Part shown: positions 1-9,137 of the stretch, one piece after another
Layout of the letters: each line of letters starts with the position of its first letter
Position numbering within the stretch: position 1 is the first letter of the stretch
IMG/VR virus record: IMGVR_UViG_2648501165_000018
Coordinates: 1-9,137 of that record
DNA length: 9,137 nucleotides
DNA from: a virus
Lineage: Duplodnaviria > Heunggongvirae > Uroviricota > Caudoviricetes
Reading direction: 5' to 3' (one strand)
The notes under the pieces: generated by a model
Told to the model about the DNA's origin: nothing
What the model saw: the letters and a program-made list of their open reading frames with translations, nothing else
The model's database searches: none
Made by a program: the position numbers and the translations under genes

Positions 1-528
1 ATGCTAAATGTAAGGTTTGATTCAGAAAAGGCTTTAGAGGCCATTCTGTACGTCGCCTCTAAAGCACCGATCCCAGATATCTATCATGTCGGAAAAATTC
101 TTTATTATGCTGACAGGTTTCACCTTGAAAGTTTTGGACGCCTCATAACGGGCGATCACTATAACGCTATGAAGGATGGGCCTGTAGCAAGCAACACATA
201 CGATATTATAAAAATTGCTCGTGGAAATGGACGTTACATTCCTAATGGTTGTGATGTCGATTCTGTGCGAAAAGCATTTTCTGTATCAGGTATGACGATT
301 GTGCCGAGCCGTGAAGCTGATGAAGACTTTTTTAGTGACTCAGATTTAGAGTGTATTGATAAGTCTATCGCGATGCTTGGAAACATGTCCTTTGAAGCTA
401 TCAGAACCATGAGCCATGACGCGGCATGGGAACAGGCAGATCACAATGGTGAGATGTCTTTGGAATCGATAGTTGCACAGCTAAAAAATAGCAAATTAAT
501 ACTGGATTATCTGAAGAACGGATATTGA
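1..528 (+). CDS. Panacea-domain (DUF4065, SocA/PanA-like) protein, putative antitoxin or immunity component
   Basis: 175-aa ORF starting at the first base of the window, so the true start may lie upstream. The N-terminal half (…KALEAILYVASKAP…YHVGKILYYADRFHLESFGRLITGDHYNAMKDGPVASNTYDIIK) matches my recollection of the DUF4065/Panacea signature (KLxKLLYyAd…HL…g.pl…Y.A…GPV…Y). Stop TGA at 526-528 lies 5 nt before the first ATG of the next ORF. Family assignment is from memory, not from an HMM search. Confidence 0.6.
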   Translation: MLNVRFDSEKALEAILYVASKAPIPDIYHVGKILYYADRFHLESFGRLITGDHYNAMKDGPVASNTYDIIKIARGNGRYIPNGCDVDSVRKAFSVSGMTIVPSREADEDFFSDSDLECIDKSIAMLGNMSFEAIRTMSHDAAWEQADHNGEMSLESIVAQLKNSKLILDYLKNGY

Positions 529-533
529 TACTT

Positions 534-995
534 ATGCTGGGTGATTGTTTCCCTCCTGATTTTAAGGCTAATTTTAGTCGTGAAAGAGGTATATCACCCG
601 GTGATGTATTGTATCTTCATTGTGATTTTACGACCCCACCTAAAGTAAAATATATGGTGGTTGTTTGCTGTGAACCTCTTTTAGTTCTTCTAATAAATTC
701 AGATATAAATGAATTTATTAAGAGAAACAATGATCTTATGGCTTGTCAGGTCGAAATTAATAGAGAGGACCATGATTTTCTTAAATGGGACTCATTTGTT
801 AATTGCATTGAGGCTCATGCTGCTTTCGATCTTGAAATTATTAAAGAGAAAATAGCCATCCAATATGGTGACGTGCTAAAAGGTCGCATTACAGATCATT
901 GTATGAGACAAGTTCGATGTGCAGTTGAGATATCTAAAACTATGGTTAAACGGCATAAAAAACTGATACTCGCTGCTCTTCAACATTATGAATAA
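534..995 (+). CDS. hypothetical protein, candidate toxin/effector partner of the Panacea-domain gene
   Basis: ORF track gives 525..995 with a TTG start that overlaps the upstream stop; the first ATG is at 534 (MLGDCFPP…, 153 aa). No strong Shine-Dalgarno, consistent with translational coupling. Visibly AT-richer than the phage genes to its right. No catalytic motif recognised. Followed immediately by a hairpin terminator. Confidence 0.5.
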   Translation: MLGDCFPPDFKANFSRERGISPGDVLYLHCDFTTPPKVKYMVVVCCEPLLVLLINSDINEFIKRNNDLMACQVEINREDHDFLKWDSFVNCIEAHAAFDLEIIKEKIAIQYGDVLKGRITDHCMRQVRCAVEISKTMVKRHKKLILAALQHYE

Positions 996-1015
996 ACCCA
1001 TCTTTGGATGGGTTT
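994..1015. terminator. bidirectional intrinsic terminator between convergent operons
   Basis: Perfect 9-bp inverted repeat AAACCCATC (994-1002) / GATGGGTTT (1007-1015) with a TTTG loop. It is followed by TTTATTCAT on the plus strand and by an equivalent U-rich run on the minus strand. It sits between the stop of the + ORF (993-995) and the stop of the minus-strand PrtN-like ORF (1029-1031). Confidence 0.5.
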
Positions 1016-1028
1016 ATTCATATTCTAT

Positions 1029-1301
1029 TTAAATGAGCCTTTGTTTATGGGTTCTGACCCTTTCCCACTCAGCACGCCCTTCTTCTCGCCTTTTGTCTAT
1101 GTATTCCGCAAGATCCTGAATATTGATGCAACGTTTTGCTTTTTGTGATGTGCCGATGCGATATGTTGGAACGGGCAACTTACAAGCGTTTGCTTTTGCT
1201 TCTGCCGTGGCTGGACTCATGCCAAAGTACTTTTGGCTAACTGCTGAGAGTTCAATGTTAGGGGTATTGAATTCAGCCATCAGTAAAAACAAGGTGTTCA
1301 T
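1029..1301 (-). CDS. PrtN-like (pyocin-activator family) small DNA-binding protein
   Basis: The ORF track's 99-aa version begins at a GTG (1328). I prefer the ATG at 1301 (MNTLFLLMAEFNTPNIELSAVSQKYFGMSPATAEAKANACKLPVPTYRIG…), which is preceded by GGAGA 5 nt upstream; an ATG at 1313 is an alternative. Sequence resembles the PyocinActivator/PrtN family as I recall it. Last gene of the minus-strand operon. Confidence 0.5.
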   Translation of the reverse strand: MNTLFLLMAEFNTPNIELSAVSQKYFGMSPATAEAKANACKLPVPTYRIGTSQKAKRCINIQDLAEYIDKRREEGRAEWERVRTHKQRLI

Positions 1302-1337
1302 AATTTTCTCCATCAAAACCGGCTGCACCCGGGAAAA

Positions 1338-1910
1338 TCATAATTCTGTGCTGGTGGCAGGAATTAGTTTCTGCCAGATAGCGGAAACATATTTTGCCTG
1401 ATGACGGGCATCAGCCAGGGCGTTGTGCCGTTCGCCATCGAAAGGCATGTCCATTTTTGGGTCGAATCCGATGGAACGCCCAAGCGTAACGATCGTGCGT
1501 ACATCGTGGTCATTCCAGTACGCCCACGGGCAGATTTGTCCTGCTCGCTCGTAAGCTCCACGTAAAATTACGTTGTCGAAGGTGGCCCCGTTACCCCAGA
1601 CTTTTAAATATTTTGTATTGTCTGCATGCTGATTAATGAAATGGCTCAGTTCAGAGAGTGCATCGCTGATCGACAAAGTATCATCAATACAGATTGCAGC
1701 TCGTGCTTCAGAGCTCTGTTTCAACCACCACAGGATGGTATCGCCGTCAGGTGTAGCTCCTTGCCCCATAGCACTTTCCAGGCTAACAACCGTATAGAAT
1801 TCTTGTCCGATGTCTCCGGTTTCTGGAGTGAAGAACACCGCGCCAATGGAAACGATCGGTGCATCCTTATTTTTCCCCATCGTCTCAAGGTCGATCATTA
1901 AGTTATTCAT
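1338..1910 (-). CDS. DEDDh-type 3'-5' exonuclease (DnaQ-like fold)
   Basis: 190 aa. N-terminal MIDLETMG carries the Exo I D-x-E motif and HNALADARH near the C-terminus carries the Exo III H-x4-D motif. SD GGAGGTGA lies 5 nt upstream of the ATG at 1910. The start overlaps the upstream stop by 1 nt (TAATG). Confidence 0.7.
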   Translation of the reverse strand: MNNLMIDLETMGKNKDAPIVSIGAVFFTPETGDIGQEFYTVVSLESAMGQGATPDGDTILWWLKQSSEARAAICIDDTLSISDALSELSHFINQHADNTKYLKVWGNGATFDNVILRGAYERAGQICPWAYWNDHDVRTIVTLGRSIGFDPKMDMPFDGERHNALADARHQAKYVSAIWQKLIPATSTEL

Positions 1911-2221
1911 TACTTCACCTCCTGCGTTTCTTTGCTGCTGTGAATTCGCCAGTTACCGACGCCTTCCCATTCAAACTGGCGGTTACTAATTCGCGTCCAG
2001 CCCCTGCCGAAAAGCAAATCCAGATACCAGTATTTTAAAGTTCTGATAATTGCTCTTACAGTTGGTTTGCATCCAGAAGTCTTTGATGCGCAAATAAAGC
2101 ACCGAGTTATGCTCATGGCTTCTACAAAAGGCCAGATAAACCAAACCCAGATGCAAAGAGCCACGAACAACATGAGCGCGATGTTAGCCACTAAGCCAGA
2201 CCAGTACAGATAATTGCTCAT
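1910..2221 (-). CDS. hypothetical small membrane protein with Cys cluster
   Basis: 103 aa. A hydrophobic N-terminal segment (LVANIALMLFVALCIWVWFIWPFV) predicts one transmembrane helix, followed by CFICASKTSGCKP. The start at 2221 overlaps the upstream stop (ATGA-type junction). Confidence 0.5.
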   Translation of the reverse strand: MSNYLYWSGLVANIALMLFVALCIWVWFIWPFVEAMSITRCFICASKTSGCKPTVRAIIRTLKYWYLDLLFGRGWTRISNRQFEWEGVGNWRIHSSKETQEVK

Positions 2222-2601
2222 TGGTTGCCTCCACCTTGGCTCTGAAGCATGGCAGCGCGGCAGGCGTTCCAGCCATCAACATACCCAGCCATGATATATC
2301 GATTAAAACCCACCTCTTTCTGTGCGCGTGCCAGATTCATTTCCTCCGGCACGTGTACTGGCTGAGCTATATATAGCGGCTGAACATACCAACCCTTTGA
2401 TAACCAACTGTCAGCAACGTTTTTACTCCGTGTTATTGCCGGAATACCTAAGCCATTGTCTGAATGCAGCCATGCCACCGGTTCTGCTTCCAGCGATGCC
2501 AGCGTAATCCGTGCAAGTTCCATTTGTTCACCACGGGTAAGCCCGTTTTCAAGCGGATTTTTAATGAATAATTCGATACGTTCTTTGGTAATAGAATTCA
2601 T
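2218..2601 (-). CDS. hypothetical phage protein
   Basis: 127 aa. The ATG at 2601 is preceded by AAGGTG 7 nt upstream and lies 1 nt after the upstream stop (TAG C ATG). No domain recognised. Confidence 0.5.
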   Translation of the reverse strand: MNSITKERIELFIKNPLENGLTRGEQMELARITLASLEAEPVAWLHSDNGLGIPAITRSKNVADSWLSKGWYVQPLYIAQPVHVPEEMNLARAQKEVGFNRYIMAGYVDGWNACRAAMLQSQGGGNQ

Positions 2602-2602
2602 G

Positions 2603-2794
2603 CTATTTCACCTTAATCTCAACATTTCGCAGCTTTATGTCTACTGGTAGGTCTGACTTTCCTGTTAACGCTAATGCGAGATTTTCAGGAGTAATGAGAG
2701 CAGTTATTGTTTTCCCCATCGCCAGACGAATAATCATTCGTATCTCGCGATCGTCACATGCTCCCGGTCGAACAATTGAGATTTGTCCGTTCAT
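2603..2794 (-). CDS. hypothetical small phage protein (63 aa)
   Basis: ORF track gives 2603..2824 with a TTG start. The ATG at 2794 (MNGQISIVRPG…) has a strong SD AAGGAGAG 6 nt upstream and lies 1 nt after the upstream TGA, so I take 2794 as the start. Confidence 0.45.
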   Translation of the reverse strand: MNGQISIVRPGACDDREIRMIIRLAMGKTITALITPENLALALTGKSDLPVDIKLRNVEIKVK

Positions 2795-2795
2795 C

Positions 2796-3383
2796 TCACT
2801 CTCCTTTGATGCGAATGCCAGCAAGCCAGTTTCTTATGCCGATATATTCAGCGTTCCTGAAACCGCTTTTTACATATATAAATGGCAAGCGAAGATTGTG
2901 ACCGTTGGCTGCCAGGTAGTCTTTACAACCCTGTTCGGTGAAACAGCAGGTAACGAATTCATCAATATCTTTCACAGCAACGCGCCGCCATTTTTCTGGT
3001 GGTTCCCGAAAGTTTTCATGAAGTAGTTCGAGACGACGACTTTGGAGTTTATTGGCTTCATTGCCATCTTCATCAACCCAGACAATCCGGTCATAGTCAT
3101 AATCAGCATCAACAACAATTTCGCGCTTTTGATACACACAAAACATAGGGTCTGACGTTATTCGATTATCCTGTGTTCGAATATTTTCACCGATGATGCC
3201 AAACGAATCTGGCGTAGGTTTTGTCTGTAACTCTTCGATACGTTCAGCCAGCGCCGCGCACTTGGCCTCAGCTTCAGCAAATTTACGCACCAGGTACTCA
3301 GCGTTTGTTTCGTTCACTTTCAGATCTCGCGGTACACATTTCCCGCGAAGAAACCCTTCCATTTCGAAAACATTCATGCGCAT
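2796..3383 (-). CDS. hypothetical phage protein with N-terminal coiled-coil-like segment
   Basis: 195 aa from the ATG at 3383. An alternative ATG at 3377 forms an ATGA overlap with the stop of the upstream HD-domain gene. The N-terminus contains a helical, charged stretch (AEAEAKCAALAERIEELQ) and the C-terminus is acidic (DADYDYDRIVWVDEDGNE). No family recognised. Confidence 0.55.
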   Translation of the reverse strand: MRMNVFEMEGFLRGKCVPRDLKVNETNAEYLVRKFAEAEAKCAALAERIEELQTKPTPDSFGIIGENIRTQDNRITSDPMFCVYQKREIVVDADYDYDRIVWVDEDGNEANKLQSRRLELLHENFREPPEKWRRVAVKDIDEFVTCCFTEQGCKDYLAANGHNLRLPFIYVKSGFRNAEYIGIRNWLAGIRIKGE

Positions 3384-3910
3384 TTGCGTAACCCCGATAA
3401 CTCGTTAAAACGTTCCATAAACATCCCGTAGGCATGGCCTGGTGACAGTGGAATAACTTTGAACATCTCTGTCGCCGGGATACCTTCCAGTACAGGCCAG
3501 AAAGAGCCATCATCAAGCCCGAGATCGCGGCGTTCGGTTGCCAGCATAATGAGATCGGCATATTTCACAGGCGTGCTCATAACCGGGGGTAACCCGTATT
3601 TCTCACGGATTACGGCGTCTATTTTTTCTTCCATCCGTTTATAGTCAGGAAGAAGGCGTTTCAGTGGCGCGGGGATGTCCTGGCAATACGCTTCTGTTGC
3701 ATCATGCATTAACGCTTCAAAAGCAAATTCCTGTGGCACCAGCTGGCTGCAAAGCACCGCATGTTGGGCGACGCTGTAGAAGTGTGAAAGATGTCCTGCA
3801 AAGCGACAGATATTTGAAAGGGAAACCGCGATATCGTTAATCACGATGTCGTCTTTATTTATCCTGTCATAATAAAAATGCTTCCCGGAAAAAGTTTTAA
3901 TAAATGACAT
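3374..3910 (-). CDS. yfdR: HD-domain phosphohydrolase, YfdR-like (5'-deoxynucleotidase family)
   Basis: ORF track starts at a GTG (3940). The ATG at 3910 (MSFIKTFSG…) has SD GGAGAA 4-5 nt upstream and gives 178 aa. HD-domain signature residues are present (…ICRFAGH…, …LMHDATEAY…). Length and synteny with a 274-aa and a 120-aa gene match the yfdP-yfdQ-yfdR block of the E. coli CPS-53 prophage as I recall it; the symbol is assigned from recalled length, synteny and motif, not from alignment. Confidence 0.65.
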   Translation of the reverse strand: MSFIKTFSGKHFYYDRINKDDIVINDIAVSLSNICRFAGHLSHFYSVAQHAVLCSQLVPQEFAFEALMHDATEAYCQDIPAPLKRLLPDYKRMEEKIDAVIREKYGLPPVMSTPVKYADLIMLATERRDLGLDDGSFWPVLEGIPATEMFKVIPLSPGHAYGMFMERFNELSGLRKCA

Positions 3911-4003
3911 TTTGTTCTCCACGTAAATGTGTTGCACCACGCTGAATTCTGGTAAAAGGAAGCCCTCACCATCCGGTGATTATTGAGTTAATTACGTTTC
4001 CAT

Positions 4004-4025
4004 AAATGCCCCCGCAGGGGCATTT
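4004..4025 (-). other. intercistronic RNA hairpin between the yfdQ-like and yfdR-like genes
   Basis: AAATGCCCC (4004-4012) / GGGGCATTT (4017-4025) forms a 9-bp stem with a 4-nt loop, 13 nt downstream of the yfdQ-like stop. The downstream sequence on the minus strand is only moderately U-rich, so it is more likely a stability/processing hairpin or weak attenuator than a strong terminator. It lies in an unusually long (127-bp) spacer in an otherwise overlapping operon. Confidence 0.3.
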
Positions 4026-4037
4026 GCAGTAATGAAA

Positions 4038-4862
4038 TCAGGCGGTGAAAGTACCAATAAAGGTTTCTACTTTGCTGTCTTTGAATTTCTCAACAAGCAG
4101 ATCACGAAATTCGTTAGCCATTTCCTCCTGCACTGCTTCCAGCTGAATAATGCGCAGAACCAGTACAGGACGATCGCCAGTGATAATGCTGAGGCGTAAT
4201 TTAAACGGACGTTCTTTCAGGCCTTCAAACGGAACGCATTTGAATTCAAATGCCACTGGCATAATGTCTTTGGTTTTCGCTTCGACAGACTCCATCAGGG
4301 AGCGTTTGCCGCTGAAGTCATTGTCTTCAAAATCAGCGGTCTGGTTTGCTTCAATCGTGATTTTACGGACTGCCGCAGCTGCTTTTGTTGCCTGAATAGC
4401 GTCACCATTAGCATCAAAGCCCACAAGGTAGTCCGCCCAGTCTTCAATCCATTCTGCCAGTGACTTCTGGGAGTTACGCTCGCCATTAACAGACAACAGA
4501 GCAGAGAACGGTGCTGTCTTTTTCAGTTTGAGAGTGGCGGTGTTATCTGCGTGGCCTGGTTCATCAATAGTACCAAGATTAAGCACACTGACAGCACGCA
4601 TATTATCAGCATCGATAAAGCAGCGGGTGCCTTCATCTGCAAGATCTTTAGAATAACGGGTAAAGTCATCGATGCTGGCAGTGGAAAGCGCACCACGGAA
4701 ACGGAAGCGATTTAAATTAAATTTTTCCAGATCATGAATGCGGAAATTCTCAGGCAATGCCACAGCATCAGCACCAATCTTACTGATAATTTCATTAACA
4801 CCCTGAGCAGAAATAAGGGCATGGATTTGATTAATTGCAGTTGCGTCTAAGTTCTGAGACAT
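4038..4862 (-). CDS. yfdQ: YfdQ-like protein (DUF2303 family), function unknown
   Basis: 274 aa. The ATG at 4862 has SD GAGGA 6 nt upstream. Length and position between the YfdP-like and YfdR-like genes match the CPS-53 yfdP-yfdQ-yfdR arrangement. Assignment is by recollection, not alignment. Confidence 0.6.
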
Positions 4863-4927
4863 AATAAGTCCTCACTATATAAAGATATTCAGTGATGAGA
4901 TAAAAAATCAGTTTATTAAGAACGATA

Positions 4928-5290
4928 TTAACGACCTGCTGCGCGGAGTTTTCCGTCAGGTTCACCGGCAAGAGTCAGTAATTGTCCCTGGTCTTCCTGC
5001 AGAATAGTCAGACGACCACCGCGATTGACATACATCGGCGTTTCGGTGGTGTCTTCTTCGGAAATTTTCCCGCGGTTAGTCGGGCGAACATATGAGAGTT
5101 TGTGTTTGATTTTCACACGGTTCTCATCAAATGGTTCGATTTCCAGGTTGAGTGAGACCTTACCTTTGGTTTTCGTGTTCATCACACCGGAAGCGACTTC
5201 ACTGAGAACTGCGCCGATTTTGGTTTCAAATACGCCGCCGTCCAGCTCCCCGATAAATGCCTGCACATCAGTACTGCGTTCGCTAGCCAT
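4928..5290 (-). CDS. YfdP-like hypothetical phage protein (120 aa), first gene of the early-left operon
   Basis: ORF track extends to a TTG at 5476 and runs through a terminator hairpin. The ATG at 5290 (MASERSTDVQAFIGELDGG…) has SD GAGGAG 6-8 nt upstream and gives 120 aa, the length I recall for YfdP. Confidence 0.55.
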   Translation of the reverse strand: MASERSTDVQAFIGELDGGVFETKIGAVLSEVASGVMNTKTKGKVSLNLEIEPFDENRVKIKHKLSYVRPTNRGKISEEDTTETPMYVNRGGRLTILQEDQGQLLTLAGEPDGKLRAAGR

Positions 5291-5338
5291 TTTGCTGCTC
5301 CTCATCATATCGACCCTGCAAGGTCGGTTGGTTTCTCC

Positions 5339-5427
5339 ACAAAACAGAGAAGAACACCTGCGGTGGCAGCCGCCCGGATGGATTGGGTTATGAGCCCGTC
5401 GTCCGGTGATGCTCTTCTCTGTTTTGT
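5339..5427. repeat. 89-bp element bounded by perfect 15-bp inverted repeats (ACAAAACAGAGAAGA … TCTTCTCTGTTTTGT)
   Basis: Positions 5339-5353 are the exact reverse complement of 5413-5427. The 59-bp interior is GC-rich and holds further short palindromes (CCGGA…TCCGG, GCGG…CCGC). It lies in the untranslated leader just upstream of the YfdP-like RBS and directly downstream (on the minus strand) of the terminator U-tract. Confidence 0.6.
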
Positions 5428-5434
5428 AAAAAGA

Positions 5435-5473
5435 GCGGTACCAGCCGGAAGCAAGTGTACAAACTGGTACCGC
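5435..5473 (-). terminator. intrinsic terminator in the early-left leader
   Basis: 10-bp GC-rich stem GCGGTACCAG (5435-5444) / CTGGTACCGC (5464-5473) with a 19-nt loop. On the minus strand the 3' arm is followed directly by TCTTTTTAC (reverse complement of 5426-5434). Confidence 0.5.
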
Positions 5474-5904
5474 CAAAGCAGTGGCTGTTGTGGTGATCGG
5501 TGATGATCTCCGGCTTGCGGTTATTTCAGACTCTCACGGGCATTTAATTGCCCCGCCGAACAGCTCTTTTCCGCAATAGCTGCAATGTCTTTCGCGCATC
5601 AGCCTGCGCATTCACCACAACGCTGAGAGCACTTAGCCAGTTACGGCACCACACTTTGTCGCGGTTCCATAAATGCCCTCATAGTTGCACCCTGGTCTCT
5701 TCCCAGGCGTCAAACCGAATCGCCACGCTGGTTAGGCGTCTTATCAGCATCATCATTGACTTGCACATTCCGGCTACCTGGTTTGTTTGCCCGAGCAAGG
5801 AGTGGATTGTCCCCTTTAACGTCCCCAGACCGCTAACGACGCATGTGCCATACGCCGTGTTACAACCAAATTTTGTTAGTACCTTGTTTGTTGGTCTGGA
5901 AAGA

Positions 5905-5957
5905 AAGATAAAATGAAGTTGCGCATTATGCAAGTATTTTTGTTGCGAGATATGCAA
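5905..5957 (-). promoter_or_regulatory. candidate OL operators and PL-like leftward promoter
   Basis: Two copies of a 15-bp motif TTGCG-N3-TATGCAA (5919-5933 TTGCGCATTATGCAA; 5943-5957 TTGCGAGATATGCAA), centres 24 bp apart. The same motif with one mismatch occurs in the cI/cro intergenic region. On the minus strand a -35 TTGCAT (5928-5933) and a -10 TATCTT (5905-5910) are 17 bp apart and overlap the first site. Promoter assignment is by eye only. Confidence 0.35.
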
Positions 5958-5974
5958 TTTGATGGGTAATGAAA

Positions 5975-5992
5975 AGCCACCTTCGGGTGGCT
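5975..5992 (-). terminator. intrinsic terminator downstream of the cI-like repressor gene
   Basis: AGCCACC (5975-5981) / TTCG loop / GGTGGCT (5986-5992), 20 nt after the cI stop. On the minus strand it is followed by TTTCATTAC. Confidence 0.5.
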
Positions 5993-6012
5993 AATTGATG
6001 AGGAGGTAAGGG

Positions 6013-6705
6013 TTAATTGTGTCGCTTAAGGGTTTGTGACTGGCTGATTAAGACCTTTCCAAAGACCATAAACCGGTGTTCATTTTCGCTGGTAATTCCC
6101 CATTCACGATAAATCTGGTTATCAGAAATCACCAGTAGTTTGTCAGGTATCATTTGCAGTCGTTTGACATAAATTTTATCATCAAAACCAAATACATAGA
6201 TACCATCTCCATCAAACTGATTGATACTGACATCAACGAAGATGAGATCTCCTGGCTCAATGGTTGGACACATACTGTCCCCACGAACGTTGATAACTTT
6301 AATGTGATTTGCTGGCCGTCCGCCAAACATCGATACAGCATTATCAGTTCTGTATTCAATGGCATGAATCACATCAATGACATCTCCGCCCTGGATAAGG
6401 CCATTTCCCGCACTGGCACTGATATCCAGCATTTCAATACGGAATACATCCTTCACCTGCGCAATATCCTCACTAATACTGTTTTTACATACAGTATTAC
6501 TTTTGAAGTCTGAGGTAAAGAGATCAGCAATATCAACACCTAAGCTCCTGGCAATATTACTCAGGGCTTGTTCAGTGAATTGTTTCTGCTTACCTGTTTC
6601 GAGGCGCGAGATATTCGCCGCATCCACTCCTATTGCTTCAGCGAGATCGGCGATTTTCATGTTCTTCGCCTGGCGAAGTTGTCTGACTCGATTTCCTATG
6701 TTCAT
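6013..6705 (-). CDS. CI-like prophage repressor (HTH-XRE N-terminal domain + S24 LexA-like autopeptidase domain)
   Basis: 230 aa. N-terminal HTH (VRQLRQAKNMKIADLAEAIGVDAANISRLETGK). C-terminal S24 signature with the catalytic Ser in RGDSMCPTIEPGDLIFVD and the Lys in IYVKRL, plus an Ala-Gly candidate cleavage site (SASAGNG). Divergent from the Cro-like gene. The -10-like TGTAAT ends 6 nt before the ATG, suggesting a leaderless or short-leader mRNA as with lambda PRM. Confidence 0.8.
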   Translation of the reverse strand: MNIGNRVRQLRQAKNMKIADLAEAIGVDAANISRLETGKQKQFTEQALSNIARSLGVDIADLFTSDFKSNTVCKNSISEDIAQVKDVFRIEMLDISASAGNGLIQGGDVIDVIHAIEYRTDNAVSMFGGRPANHIKVINVRGDSMCPTIEPGDLIFVDVSINQFDGDGIYVFGFDDKIYVKRLQMIPDKLLVISDNQIYREWGITSENEHRFMVFGKVLISQSQTLKRHN

Positions 6706-6802
6706 GCGTTTATTACATTTCTTTATTGCGCGTTAAGCAAATCAACTTGCGCAAAATATTTGCGTGAAATAATATGCTCATCACGCAATATGTGGAGGTT
6801 AT
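6706..6802. promoter_or_regulatory. divergent immunity control region (OR-like operators, PRM-like and PR-like promoters)
   Basis: Operator-like sites: TTGCGCGTTAAGCAA (6726-6740), the palindromic TTGCGCAA (6747-6754), and the inverted repeat TTGCGTGA (6760-6767) / TCACGCAA (6781-6788). Rightward candidate promoter: -35 TTGCGC (6747-6752), 17-bp spacer, -10 TAATAT (6770-6775). Leftward candidate promoter: -35 TTGCTT (6735-6740 on minus), 17-bp spacer, -10 TGTAAT (6712-6717 on minus). SD GGAGG (6794-6798) precedes the cro-like ATG at 6803. Confidence 0.45.
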
Positions 6803-7063
6803 ATGCAATCACCATTACGGAATGTGCGTAAGGCGCACGGATTTACTTTGCAGCATGTTGCTGCGGGCGTTCAGGTCAATCCAGCGACGCTGAGTCGTAT
6901 TGAAAGACTGGAACAAATTCCATCTATCGAGCTTGCAGAACGTCTGGCCAATTTTTTTAAGGGAGAAATCAGCGAAATGCAGATTCTCTATCCTGCACGC
7001 TTTCAATCTAGTCAAAACCGGAATGAGTTAAAACCACAGGAACAGGAGGTAAGCCGTGGGTAA
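6803..7063 (+). CDS. Cro-like HTH-XRE transcriptional regulator
   Basis: 86 aa. HTH (LRNVRKAHGFTLQHVAAGVQVNPATLSRIERLE). First gene rightward of the repressor, preceded by GGAGG. Confidence 0.7.
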   Translation: MQSPLRNVRKAHGFTLQHVAAGVQVNPATLSRIERLEQIPSIELAERLANFFKGEISEMQILYPARFQSSQNRNELKPQEQEVSRG

Positions 7064-7607
7064 GCATCACTGGAAAGTGGAAAAACAGCCTGAGTGGTAC
7101 GTGAAAGCTGTCAGAAAAACTATCGCGGCGTTGCCGGGGGGTTACGCTGAAGCTGCTGAGTGGCTGGATGTAACAGAGAACGCTTTATTCAACCGCCTTC
7201 GTGCCGATGGCGATCAGTTTTTTCCGTTGGGATGGGCAATGGTTTTACAGCGTGCGGCTGGTACTCACCACATTGCGGATGCTGTCGCACAGTCTGCTGG
7301 TGGGGTGTTTGTATCACTTCCAGAAATTGAGGAAGTAGAGAACGCCGATATAAACCAGCGCCTGCTGGAAGTCATCGAACAGATCGGGAGTTACTCAAAG
7401 CAGATTCGTTCGGCAATCGAAGATGGGGTAGTGGAGCCACACGAGCAGACAGCAATTAATGATGAGTTGTATCTGTCAATTTCGAAGCTCCAGGAGCATG
7501 CAGCACTGGTCTACAAAATCTTCTGCGCTCCAGAAAAGAGTAACGCCCGCGAGTGTGCAGCTCCGGGCGTCGTGGCGTTTTGTGTCTGTGGAGAAACTAA
7601 CGCATGA
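7056..7607 (+). CDS. CII-like phage regulatory protein (186-CII/CP76-type, positional CII equivalent)
   Basis: 183 aa. GTG start at 7056 with a strong SD AGGAGGT (7044-7050) 5 nt upstream; overlaps the cro-like stop by 8 nt. Putative HTH GGYAEAAEWLDVTENALFNRLRADGDQ, followed by a …FFPLGWAMVLQRAAGTHHIADAVAQ… segment reminiscent of the phage 186 CII family as I recall it. Same position as cII in lambdoid layouts. Confidence 0.55.
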   Translation: MGKHHWKVEKQPEWYVKAVRKTIAALPGGYAEAAEWLDVTENALFNRLRADGDQFFPLGWAMVLQRAAGTHHIADAVAQSAGGVFVSLPEIEEVENADINQRLLEVIEQIGSYSKQIRSAIEDGVVEPHEQTAINDELYLSISKLQEHAALVYKIFCAPEKSNARECAAPGVVAFCVCGETNA

Positions 7608-8764
7608 ACAGTTTAACGGCAAATAACCGTTTGTCGCAACAGCTGGTGGTCAGTGTCGCTGCACACCTGTTGTTACGGCATGAATGCAGATTACCAAATC
7701 ACCTGGCTGTAAGTAACCACAGAGAACTTTACCTGACTGTGGGGGGCGAGTTGTGCAGGAACTTAACCGCTGGTTTCGTGACGGAAGAGGACTTTATGTT
7801 CATGTTATTCGTTGGGAGCCAGAAACACAGCGCGTTATCTATCTTCGCAAAGACTACCCGCATGAGTGCTTTAGTCCTTTGTGGAAATTCAGGCGTGATT
7901 TTGTTGAGTGTGAAGGACCACCAGCATATTGATTCTGCAATTCCGGGACGTTACACTGTTCAGGCACCTTATAAAGCGGGTGCCGGGATTGGCGTCCTGA
8001 AATTGTCAACGGCGATGTATGACGCGCCAGCGTCTTTTTTATCGTCCGCATTTGCTCACATCCAGATTATGGTGGGCTGGGCGGGGGCACCGAAAGGTGC
8101 GCCGGTCTCCGTTGACGCCGGTTACGCCAACCCCGTCCAGTTCACCACCAGTGAAATTGGCGTTTCCGGTGGTGGAAGTTTTTCACTGTCAACGGAGGCT
8201 GCCATCATGGCTACGATCCAAGCCCTCACTCAACCTGAAATCACCATTGACAACGGCCAGGCCGTTACCACTTCTTTGGCTGTTGCCAACTTCTTCTCCA
8301 AGCGTCACGACGATGTGCTGAAAAAGATCCGCACTCTGGATTGTTCCCCTGAGTTTTGTGCCCGCAATTTTGCGGAGACATCGATTTCGGTAAATCAACC
8401 GAACGGTGGTACACGCAAGCTCCCTTGCTATCAAATCACACGAGACGGTTTTGCGTTTCTTGCTATGGGTTTCACGGGTAAACGTGCTGCCCGGTTCAAA
8501 GAGGCATACATCAATGCCTTTAACCAGATGGAAAAACTGCTTTCAAAGCCATCCACGCTGAGCGATGCCGCAGATAACGCCAGCGTGCTTTACTCCCACC
8601 TGTCGGTAATCCACAAGGTCTGGCTGCAGCAGCTTTATCCTATGTTGGCAAAAGCTGAATCTCCGCTGGCTGTTAGCTTATATGATTATATTAATGATGC
8701 TTCGGCGCTGGCCTGCCTCATAAATTTGTCGCTGAACCCTTCAGAGGTAAGGGGGCGCAAATGA
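7604..8764 (+). CDS. Rha-domain phage regulatory protein (antirepressor-like); N-terminal extent uncertain
   Basis: The C-terminal ~185 aa (from the ATG at 8207, MATIQALTQPEITIDNGQAVTTSLAVANFFSKRHDDVLKKIRTL…ITRDGFAFLAMGFTGKRAARFKEAYINAFNQME) matches the Rha family as I recall it, and that ATG has a strong SD GGAGG 8 nt upstream. The frame is nevertheless open back to the ATG at 7604, which forms an ATGA junction with the CII-like gene; codon usage and the R/P/S-rich shadow frame argue that at least 8019-8206 is coding in this frame. The reported span is the full open frame. 8207..8764 is the conservative core. Confidence 0.5.
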   Translation: MNSLTANNRLSQQLVVSVAAHLLLRHECRLPNHLAVSNHRELYLTVGGELCRNLTAGFVTEEDFMFMLFVGSQKHSALSIFAKTTRMSALVLCGNSGVILLSVKDHQHIDSAIPGRYTVQAPYKAGAGIGVLKLSTAMYDAPASFLSSAFAHIQIMVGWAGAPKGAPVSVDAGYANPVQFTTSEIGVSGGGSFSLSTEAAIMATIQALTQPEITIDNGQAVTTSLAVANFFSKRHDDVLKKIRTLDCSPEFCARNFAETSISVNQPNGGTRKLPCYQITRDGFAFLAMGFTGKRAARFKEAYINAFNQMEKLLSKPSTLSDAADNASVLYSHLSVIHKVWLQQLYPMLAKAESPLAVSLYDYINDASALACLINLSLNPSEVRGRK

Positions 8765-8985
8765 TCCGGAATATTTTCAAACGGTTTACCAATCAGACTT
8801 TCCGTTGTCCTCGTCCGGGTCAGTGGTACACCACACCTGCAGGGCATGTTCTACGTGTTAGCCTGGTTGACCGTGAATGTCAGAAGGTGATTTGTGAACC
8901 GCTTGGCCGTAATTACCGCGTCAGTATGCCGCTTATAGCCTTTCGCTCCGGAAAAAACATGAAGCATCTCGGAGGTGCAGCATGA
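8761..8985 (+). CDS. hypothetical small phage protein (74 aa)
   Basis: ATGA overlap with the Rha ORF stop at 8761-8764 and a second ATGA overlap with the next gene's start at 8982-8985. Basic, Cys-containing (RCPRPGQW…RECQKVICEP). No domain recognised. Confidence 0.45.
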   Translation: MIRNIFKRFTNQTFRCPRPGQWYTTPAGHVLRVSLVDRECQKVICEPLGRNYRVSMPLIAFRSGKNMKHLGGAA

Positions 8986-9137
8986 GTATGGAGCTGATGG
9001 TTAAAGCGATGAAAATTCGAGTGGGTAATCCATTGCGAAAACTGGTTCTGATCAAGCTGGCTGATAATGCCAGCGATCAGGGTGAGTGCTGGCCCAGCTA
9101 CCAGCATATTGAACCGCCCCGGGTTTCCTGGAGAGTA
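8982..9137 (+). CDS. phage replication-initiation-type protein, N-terminal HTH fragment (truncated by window end)
   Basis: ATG at 8982 with SD GGAGG (8971-8975) 6 nt upstream. MSMELMVKAMKIRVGNPLRKLVLIKLADNASDQGECWPSYQHI… resembles the N-terminal winged-HTH of phage replication proteins (the …KLVLLALADHANDDGECFPS… pattern). Runs off the end of the window. Confidence 0.5.
   Translation, partial: MSMELMVKAMKIRVGNPLRKLVLIKLADNASDQGECWPSYQHIEPPRVSWRV

Follow-up and report, generated by a model that had tools for sequence, protein, structure and literature searches.

A 386-codon open frame in a lambdoid prophage probably spans two genes and an antisense-RNA immunity switch

The 9,137-nucleotide (nt) stretch of viral DNA analyzed here (IMG/VR record IMGVR_UViG_2648501165_000018, positions 1 to 9,137; hereafter the window) contains a single frame, from the ATG at 7604 to a stop at 8764, that is open for 386 codons and ends as a Rha-family antirepressor. 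A sequence-only reading had noted this frame, a run of six G residues (G6) within it and a protein-like alternative frame beside the run, and had offered three explanations: a genuine fusion protein, a frameshifted gene followed by a separate Rha gene, or programmed slippage. We consider it probable (roughly 0.7) that region 7604-8764 comprises instead two genuine genes, encoding a DUF4222 protein and Rha, with an antisense-RNA immunity switch between them, and not one protein. This conclusion is carried by profile matches to both genes and both RNA families, by covarying pairings between the RNAs and their targets, and by a conserved long frame in which no amino-acid constraint is seen between the two genes. 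The switch belongs to the antisense-RNA immunity type known from phages P1, P4, and Gifsy-1; the coding ambiguity is real and its resolution ordinary.

The RNA module and the Rha gene

The sequence-only reading treated positions 7604-8206 as a coding problem and missed the c4/IsrK antisense-RNA immunity module that Rfam models and covariation locate between the two genes. Positions 7952-8239 are an RNA module, composed of an IsrK/seqA-like RNA and a c4/CI-like RNA, and not protein sequence (feature coordinates are given in table 1). The IsrK-like RNA comprises a 5' hairpin, a second hairpin bearing the target b1, the single-stranded target a1, and an intrinsic terminator, and its match to RF03163, the family describing a1/b1 targets, is weak (21.6 bits, below gathering). 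The c4-like RNA, which is matched over the full length of its model, presents two recognition elements (a' and b'), each complementary to a target in the IsrK-like RNA upstream (a1, b1) and to another just downstream (a2, b2). Target a2 covers four of the five bases of the Shine-Dalgarno sequence GGAGG (8194-8198) that precedes the Rha start. The transcript 7964-8215 is strongly structured (fold z = -4.43); at minimum energy, a' is paired in cis with a2.

Covariation was assessed in an alignment of 42 unique homologues (A1), with slid pairings as controls. The internal stems of c4 are paired in 97.4% of cells and nine of their pairs have changed on both sides, compared with about 40% of cells paired in the slid controls. 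For the downstream targets (a' with a2 plus b' with b2), 94.7% of cells are paired and 11 of 17 pairs are compensatory (slid controls 35-47%); the a'-a2 helix alone reaches 98.6%, with 7 of its 10 pairs compensatory. The upstream targets (a' with a1 plus b' with b1) are paired in 99.5% of cells, 13 of 15 pairs being compensatory (slid controls 33-51%). Covariation scores are 0.637 for the downstream and 0.743 for the upstream targets, the slid controls scoring at most 0.149. About nine a and four b specificities can be told apart by eye in these homologues, each matched at all three sites, and the a and b motifs provide a simple sequence read-out of the specificity of a switch whose loops are exchangeable.

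Tandem pairs of IsrK-c4 cassettes, contained within about 1 kb, occur in some prophages (L011 and L017, positions 2529-2911; L227, positions 2013-2200 and 3017-3205). The second cassette of L011 and L017 is 99.5-99.7% identical to the window module, and the first is of a different specificity type.

The same interval also has a protein-level match. Pfam Phage_ASH (PF10554) aligns with residues 117-212 of the long open reading frame (ORF), which correspond to 7952-8239, scoring 73.7 bits against a gathering threshold of 26, and in the window as in P4 the match coincides with those of the isrK and C4 RNA models. Several PHROG families match the segment as well, the same frame is found in P4 and in the window, P4 Eta is translated according to the passage on it in PMC10111431, and Rha/Ash proteins are taken as real by the Prokaryotic Genome Annotation Pipeline (PGAP) and in the published literature. 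These observations favor a genuine multidomain protein, either of 386 amino acids (aa) or a shorter Ash-Rha product begun at 7862, 7895, or 8015, in which Ash is a protein domain with RNA genes embedded in it. We regard such a protein as improbable. Selection on the amino acids of the Ash segment was looked for and none was found: the ratio of nonsynonymous to synonymous polymorphism (pN/pS) over IsrK-c4 is 0.86 in the long frame, no different from that in the other two frames (0.85 and 1.01), and the variable columns lack three-base periodicity. Amino-acid changes track compensatory changes in the RNA (for example GWAGAPKGAPVSV to GRAGPTSVGPGSL), one homologue (L026) has an internal stretch that is frame-shifted and then restored, and the segment includes a putative promoter and an intrinsic terminator. 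The Phage_ASH match exists, in our reading, because the RNA is conserved.

The putative promoter is of the sigma-70 type and lies directly before the IsrK-like RNA. Its -35 hexamer includes the stop codon of the DUF4222 gene, and its -10 hexamer ends 6 nt before 7964, the transcription start being predicted at about G7964. The stretch is almost invariant among the 42 homologues (alignment columns 10-34), and each of the 19 IsrK-c4 modules compared across diverse genera (Citrobacter, Edwardsiella, Brenneria, Dickeya, Mixta, Pseudomonas, and P4) has a -35/-10 pair at a constant distance from the 5' end of IsrK; the proposal is based on this position and conservation.

Rha has a start of its own at 8207, as the sequence-only reading had supposed. 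Counted along the long ORF, the Pfam Rha domain occupies residues 222-311 and begins 20 codons past this ATG, and the gene matches the anti-repressor/Rha families of PHROG. A second in-frame AUG lies at the 5' end of c4 (8069). It is present and in frame with the Rha ATG in 64/64 unique homologous sequences from IMG/VR and phage records, and the peptide that it opens varies freely. An AUG is found at the c4 5' end in 19/19 of the diverse modules, and the PHROG profile phrog_4908 begins at AUG 8069.

The Shine-Dalgarno sequence, the ATG, and the first ∼10 codons of Rha (MAT-I/T-...-Q/H-PE; window 8194-8231) are common to unrelated genes that follow c4, namely Rha in the window, Kil in P4 (L085, ∼8340-8380, minus strand), and short genes in other genera (L216-L230). 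In SfV-type loci similarity to the window stops near 8231. This shared block looks like a module boundary, or like part of the regulatory RNA.

The DUF4222 gene and the G6 run

The alternative frame, open from 7717 to the TGA at 7930-7932, had been put forward as a plausible small protein, and comparative evidence bears this out: it is a real, separate gene under protein-level selection. Its first start is the GTG at 7753. The resulting 59-aa ORF matches the Pfam DUF4222 hidden Markov model (PF13973) with 51.1 bits against a gathering threshold of 27, covering profile positions 4-51 of 53, and matches positions 1-58 of 59 of phrog_1343; related genomes have the gene annotated by PGAP. Among the 64 homologues the variable columns in 7753-7929 fall into the three phases as 4/20/5, so that 20 of 29 lie at the third codon position of DUF4222 and not at that of the long frame. 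In comparison with the more divergent copies of e14, Citrobacter, and Salmonella, pN/pS over DUF4222 is 0.31 in its own frame, compared with 1.56 and 1.24 in the other two, and the window shares 37 of 60 residues with e14 in the DUF4222 frame, compared with 18 of 59 in the long frame. The AlphaFold (AF2) model of the 59 residues is a small beta-barrel of SH3/KOW-like form with a predicted local distance difference test (pLDDT) score of 85, and on this model the 59 residues look like a self-contained domain. A PDB sequence search with DUF4222 returned nothing meaningful, and a Foldseek comparison of the model with the PDB gave generic likeness to small beta-barrels (KOW/SH3/Tudor), none of it significant (E ≥ 0.047).

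Judging from its position, the G6 run is the Shine-Dalgarno sequence of DUF4222 and not the scar of a frameshift. The start position is kept across lineages, with AAGGAG before TTG in e14, GGAGGG before GTG in Citrobacter, and GGGGGG followed by six bases and GTG in the window. The run is length-variable in nature: at least 119 IMG/VR contigs have G6, three have G7, and one has G5, G6 being present in 61/64 unique homologues, and one further homologue lacks the G that follows the run. The G5, G7, and single-G-deletion alleles all leave the GTG-started DUF4222 gene intact.

The geometry that made the run suspicious is correct. One added G, or a -1 shift, joins the 7604 start to the DUF4222 frame, the product is exactly 109 aa long, and the three natural G7 alleles encode it. 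A gene of about 110 aa, consisting of an N-terminal piece and DUF4222 and split because one G is missing, whether through decay to a pseudogene or through misassembly, is consistent with these alleles and with a 109-aa cluster of 19 member sequences in the protein database. We nevertheless hold a split gene to be very improbable. G6 predominates among the alleles, and the 59 aa of DUF4222 form a complete domain whose start and Shine-Dalgarno sequence are conserved. The N-terminal 48 aa gave no family match in a profile search that included PHROG, and they are similar between lineages only over the first 14-22 residues, not being conserved past about 20. Checked against protein databases, the apparent full-length homologues of the 109-aa reconstruction are mostly frame-hopping chimeras or come from error-ridden contigs. 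Most of the 100-119-aa proteins resembling it change frame, at differing positions, and P0057 differs from the clean Citrobacter locus by single-base indels of the kind seen in assembly error; this verdict covers most of these proteins and P0057, with P0013 (114 aa) outside it.

The e14 ymfL-ymfM locus has the same arrangement, a cII-like ymfL followed by an ORF that overlaps its stop and starts MNSLT, with a DUF4222 ORF inside it in another frame, and in Citrobacter, too, the upstream ORF is out of frame with DUF4222. The e14 locus differs from the window in having no c4 module or Rha downstream, in the Shine-Dalgarno sequence AAGGAG in place of a G run, and in the end of its frame-0 ORF, annotated as YmfM, after 112 codons.

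Programmed -1 frameshifting or transcriptional slippage at the heptamer G GGG GGC, yielding a 109-aa fusion of the YmfM N-terminus with DUF4222, was the remaining proposal. In the zero frame the heptamer has the form X XXY YYZ, a -1 shift at this site leads into the DUF4222 frame, and the homopolymer varies in length in nature. However, heptamers rich in G shift poorly in E. coli, the heptamer is absent from the e14 and Citrobacter lineages, no stimulatory RNA structure was found 3' of the run (fold z = -0.87), and the run is better explained as the Shine-Dalgarno sequence of GTG 7753. Slippage is for these reasons most improbable. What the homologues conserve is mixed with respect to the sequence-only reading, in that the long frame and the G6 run are both kept, but selection at the protein level acts on the alternative frame.

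Between ymfL and DUF4222, pN/pS in 7608-7752 does not tell the frames apart in a comparison of the window with Salmonella sal3. Two nucleotide blocks in this spacer, GAATGCAGATTACCAAAT and GTAACCACAG, are kept in E. coli, Salmonella sal3, and Citrobacter (window 7675-7725; L214, ∼2400-2460; L003). The spacer around them diverges, and the conservation of the blocks is not accounted for by any frame.

Related immunity systems and the long frame

In phages P1 and P7 the downstream targets of the c4 antisense RNA overlap the ribosome-binding site that gates the antirepressor, and short sequences set immunity specificity. Their immI region, the subject of work by Citron and Schuster in 1990, reportedly encodes c4, icd, and ant, with each of a' and b' able to pair with an upstream target (a1, b1) and a downstream one (a2, b2). 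The window resembles immI in possessing a c4 RNA with a' and b', upstream targets a1/b1, and downstream targets a2/b2 at a ribosome-binding site before an antirepressor. It differs in that no icd intervenes between c4 and the antirepressor, that the target lies on the antirepressor's own Shine-Dalgarno sequence, that this antirepressor is of the Rha type and not P1 Ant, and that c4 is inside a long open frame. An Icd-like ORF was looked for between c4 and Rha in the window and none was found, the ATG after a2 opening Rha directly; Icd-like genes follow c4 in other E. coli loci.

In Salmonella Gifsy-1, IsrK has its own promoter and a leaky terminator. The orf45 region that follows base-pairs with IsrK and is translated, antirepressor synthesis depends on orf45, and its nucleotides are conserved but not its amino acids (Hershko-Shalev et al. 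2016, PMC4825925). The window shares with the Gifsy-1 isrK-orf45-anrP arrangement an AUG ∼106 nt from the IsrK 5' end, a frame across c4-like sequence in which nucleotides and not amino acids are conserved, complementarity between IsrK and the c4-like region, and an antirepressor downstream, and AUG 8069 is homologous to the first AUG of orf45. Unlike orf45, which ends in an AUGA shared with the start of anrP (translational coupling), the window frame is fused in frame with the antirepressor in 64/64 homologues and is also open far upstream.

The closest likeness in design concerns the long frame itself. The P4 immunity region has, in the same order, a promoter, seqA (matched by the isrK model), CI (matched by the C4 model), and targets beside the Shine-Dalgarno sequence of a nested gene, and the Shine-Dalgarno-ATG block before P4 kil, GGAGGCTGCCATCATGGCTAC, is identical to the block before Rha. 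A 199-codon ORF, eta, is coupled through an ATGA at 8767 to the upstream gene orf88 (alpA-like), spans the constitutive internal promoter PLE, seqA, CI, and seqC, and is in frame with the nested kil; Phage_ASH matches the ORF holding the CI RNA, as in the window. PMC10111431, which summarizes Forti et al. 1995 and 1999 on the P4 region, states with reference to the 1999 paper that translation of full-length Eta occurs from the upstream promoter only and that this translation prevents termination. The window shows the eta/kil layout, with a long ORF that begins upstream of the internal promoter, overlaps the upstream stop, and is in frame with the nested gene. The two regions differ in the nested gene (65-aa Kil in P4, 185-aa Rha antirepressor in the window), in 116 additional codons of the window frame, which a separate gene, DUF4222, overlaps in another frame, in a distance from the ATTATGG motif to CI that is ∼70 nt longer in P4, and in their setting, P4 being a satellite and the window element the early operon of a lambdoid prophage after its cII-like gene.

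On these precedents we predict that the internal promoter (∼7929-7957) starts transcription near 7964 and that the IsrK-like terminator (8040) would stop most transcripts, those that read through including the c4-like RNA (8065-8152). The a' and b' elements of c4 would pair with a2 and b2 just downstream, masking the Shine-Dalgarno sequence of Rha ATG 8207 and keeping the antirepressor off, and a1 and b1, which repeat these target sequences upstream in the IsrK-like RNA, would compete for the same c4 loops, by which the block could be relieved. Under transcription from the early promoter, translational coupling to ymfL would bring ribosomes into the long frame, and these would move through the terminator, c4, and the target sites into Rha; neither termination nor RNA immunity would then affect expression of the antirepressor. 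The direction of regulation, taken over from experiments on P1, P4, and Gifsy-1, is very probably as given here.

The frame that these ribosomes would follow starts at an ATG that shares an ATGA with the ymfL stop (7604-7607), passes through DUF4222 out of frame, the internal promoter, the IsrK-like RNA, and c4 with its targets, and ends as Rha. Its full length of 386 codons, reported by the sequence-only reading, is confirmed. ATG 7604 is present in 64/64 unique homologues, the frame is open in 62/64, and it is open more often than chance predicts. Indels within 8042-8206 all preserve the frame, including a compensating pair of 1 and 2 nt in L026, and stop triplets over 8069-8206 number 0/25/36 by frame. 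The probability of meeting no stop was estimated by shuffles at 0.069 for 7607-7753, by synonymous randomization at 0.038 for the overlap with DUF4222, and at 0.14 for 7933-8068, multiplying to ∼4e-4 if the stretches are treated as independent. Among the 19 diverse modules, the frame of the c4 AUG continues into a long downstream gene in nine (class A), and in 8/9 of these it passes upstream of the IsrK 5' end, compared with 3/9 for each of the other two frames. Some class A modules have their own Shine-Dalgarno sequence and ATG ∼50 nt upstream of the IsrK 5' end.

Several observations weigh against this interpretation of the region. The chance estimates treat homologues that are related as more independent than they are. 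In 10/19 diverse modules the c4-AUG frame closes inside c4, and a nested long frame is not universal. Five natural variants (three G7, one G5, and one single-G deletion) cut the long frame just before DUF4222, which means either that the link to 7604 is dispensable or that these are homopolymer sequencing errors. The corresponding frame in e14 and Citrobacter, annotated as YmfM, is open with no c4 module downstream, and an eta-like role therefore cannot account for the upstream part of the frame there. Finally, a consensus promoter scan of 7500-8300 made no call, TTGATT-17-TACACT matching 8 of 12 consensus positions.

A long frame without function, kept open by shared ancestry, GC-rich RNA sequence, and luck, would amount to an annotation artefact and would leave DUF4222, the switch, and Rha as described. 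Amino-acid constraint and codon periodicity are absent outside DUF4222 and Rha, the G5, G7, and deletion alleles break the frame, half of the diverse c4 modules do without one, and most homologues are close relatives in which the openness of 7604-7932 is inherited, not independently kept. We see this as a possibility, though on the unlikely side, given the chance estimates, the frame-preserving indels and stop counts in the RNA region, the distant class A modules, and the experimentally studied P4 eta, which shares the design (PMC10111431). An artefact pure and simple was our first view, and it was dropped on the frame-preserving indels, the chance estimates, and the eta precedent. By analogy with eta, the odds are about even that the long frame is translated as an override of termination and RNA immunity and not in order to make a domain. 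The proposal of a genuine 386-aa fusion protein survives in that sense alone, of a frame translated for its regulatory effect, and fails as regards the Ash segment, where amino-acid constraint is lacking. More tentatively, the frame may act as a "ribosome conveyor" whose amino-acid sequence is irrelevant, kept open across DUF4222 and the RNA switch for escape from the IsrK terminator and c4 repression.

Setting and annotation of the locus

The window belongs to a lambdoid prophage of the e14/SfV type, of which it is the immunity and early region (table 1). An identical stretch is present in an E. coli chromosome, and related DNA occurs in 3052 of 5426 complete E. coli genomes as well as in SfV, cdtI, 2H10, and Shiga toxin (Stx) phages. 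The switch would give lambdoid and Stx-type prophages a second determinant of immunity, one based on RNA, which could govern the cross-induction of co-resident prophages.

Table 1. Features of the immunity and early region, in window coordinates
Feature	Position	Strand	Basis or detail
CI-like repressor	6013-6705	minus	
Cro-like gene	6803-7063		
CII-like regulator gene YmfL (Pfam Phage_CP76)	7056-7607	+	Pfam E = 3.9e-15; RefSeq homologues annotated ymfL
386-codon composite frame	7604-8764	+	ATG 7604 to stop 8764
G6 run, Shine-Dalgarno-like element, length-variable homopolymer	7741-7746	+	6 nt upstream of GTG 7753
DUF4222 gene, 59 aa, GTG start	7753-7932	+	Pfam PF13973 E = 9.4e-14
Putative sigma-70 promoter in long ORF	7929-7957	+	-35 TTGATT 7929-7934, 17-nt spacer, -10 TACACT 7952-7957
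IsrK / P4 seqA-like RNA	7964-8040	+	Rfam RF01394 62.2 bits, gathering 50
Target b1	7989-7995	+	Complementary to c4 b' (8124-8130), 7 pairs
Target a1, single-stranded	8005-8012	+	Complementary to 8 bases of a' (8109-8116)
Intrinsic terminator, end of IsrK element	8021-8040 (8021-8034 + T run)	+	Terminator scan
c4 / P4 CI-like antisense RNA	8065-8152	+	Rfam RF01695 81.4 bits, gathering 45, model 1-87 of 87
Conserved AUG at c4 5' end	8069-8071	+	In frame with Rha ATG, 46 codons upstream of it
c4 recognition loop a' (hairpin loop)	8107-8116	+	
c4 recognition element b', single-stranded	8124-8130	+	
Target b2, TTGGCGT	8157-8163	+	Complementary to c4 b', 7 perfect pairs
Target a2, GTCAACGGAG	8188-8197	+	10 perfect pairs with c4 a' loop
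Rha-family antirepressor gene, 185 aa from internal ATG	8207-8764	+	Pfam Phage_pRha E = 7.7e-28

Annotation of the locus is inconsistent across thousands of E. coli genomes, and reading it as an RNA switch fixes the gene model. The exact 386-aa protein is on record from ∼1000 contigs under the names "Rha family regulator," "peptidase," or "antirepressor." RefSeq treats near-identical loci (L086, L087, and L088) differently, one genome having a single 386-aa "Rha family" protein and no DUF4222, and other loci having DUF4222 together with an "ash family protein" or "Rha family" gene that starts at the equivalent of 7895 or 7862. In work on Stx phages, "Rha/Ash" is handled as a protein with two domains (PMC8951638). 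If the long frame does serve as a conveyor of ribosomes, "Ash family" or "Rha/Ash" database proteins would represent an RNA module plus an override frame, and not a protein domain.

In P4 (L085, 8168-8767, minus strand), PF10554 matches the eta ORF and the old "cI gene product" and not epsilon, which is in PF25738. Some papers equate epsilon with Ash, and at least one survey has used PF10554 as the epsilon profile (PMC8628076).

The e14 gene ymfM has been reported as the SOS-inducible division inhibitor SfiC (bioRxiv 10.1101/2020.11.19.390815). In K-12, ymfM (112 aa, YMFM_ECOLI; L089, 1561-1919) is an ATGA-coupled frame that fully contains the DUF4222 ORF, with AAGGAG and TTG. Since only the DUF4222 frame is conserved as protein and a cloned "ymfM ORF" has both, the active product may be DUF4222, and if the conveyor role holds, SfiC could be the nested 59-aa DUF4222 protein.

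Other RNA families lie near the module in some genera. In Brenneria and Mixta loci an EFASI RNA follows the c4 module at a distance of ∼1.3 kb (L220, 3486-3616; L226, 3416-3546), and the Mixta locus has a match to sRNA-Xcc1 directly upstream of IsrK (L226, 1766-1850).

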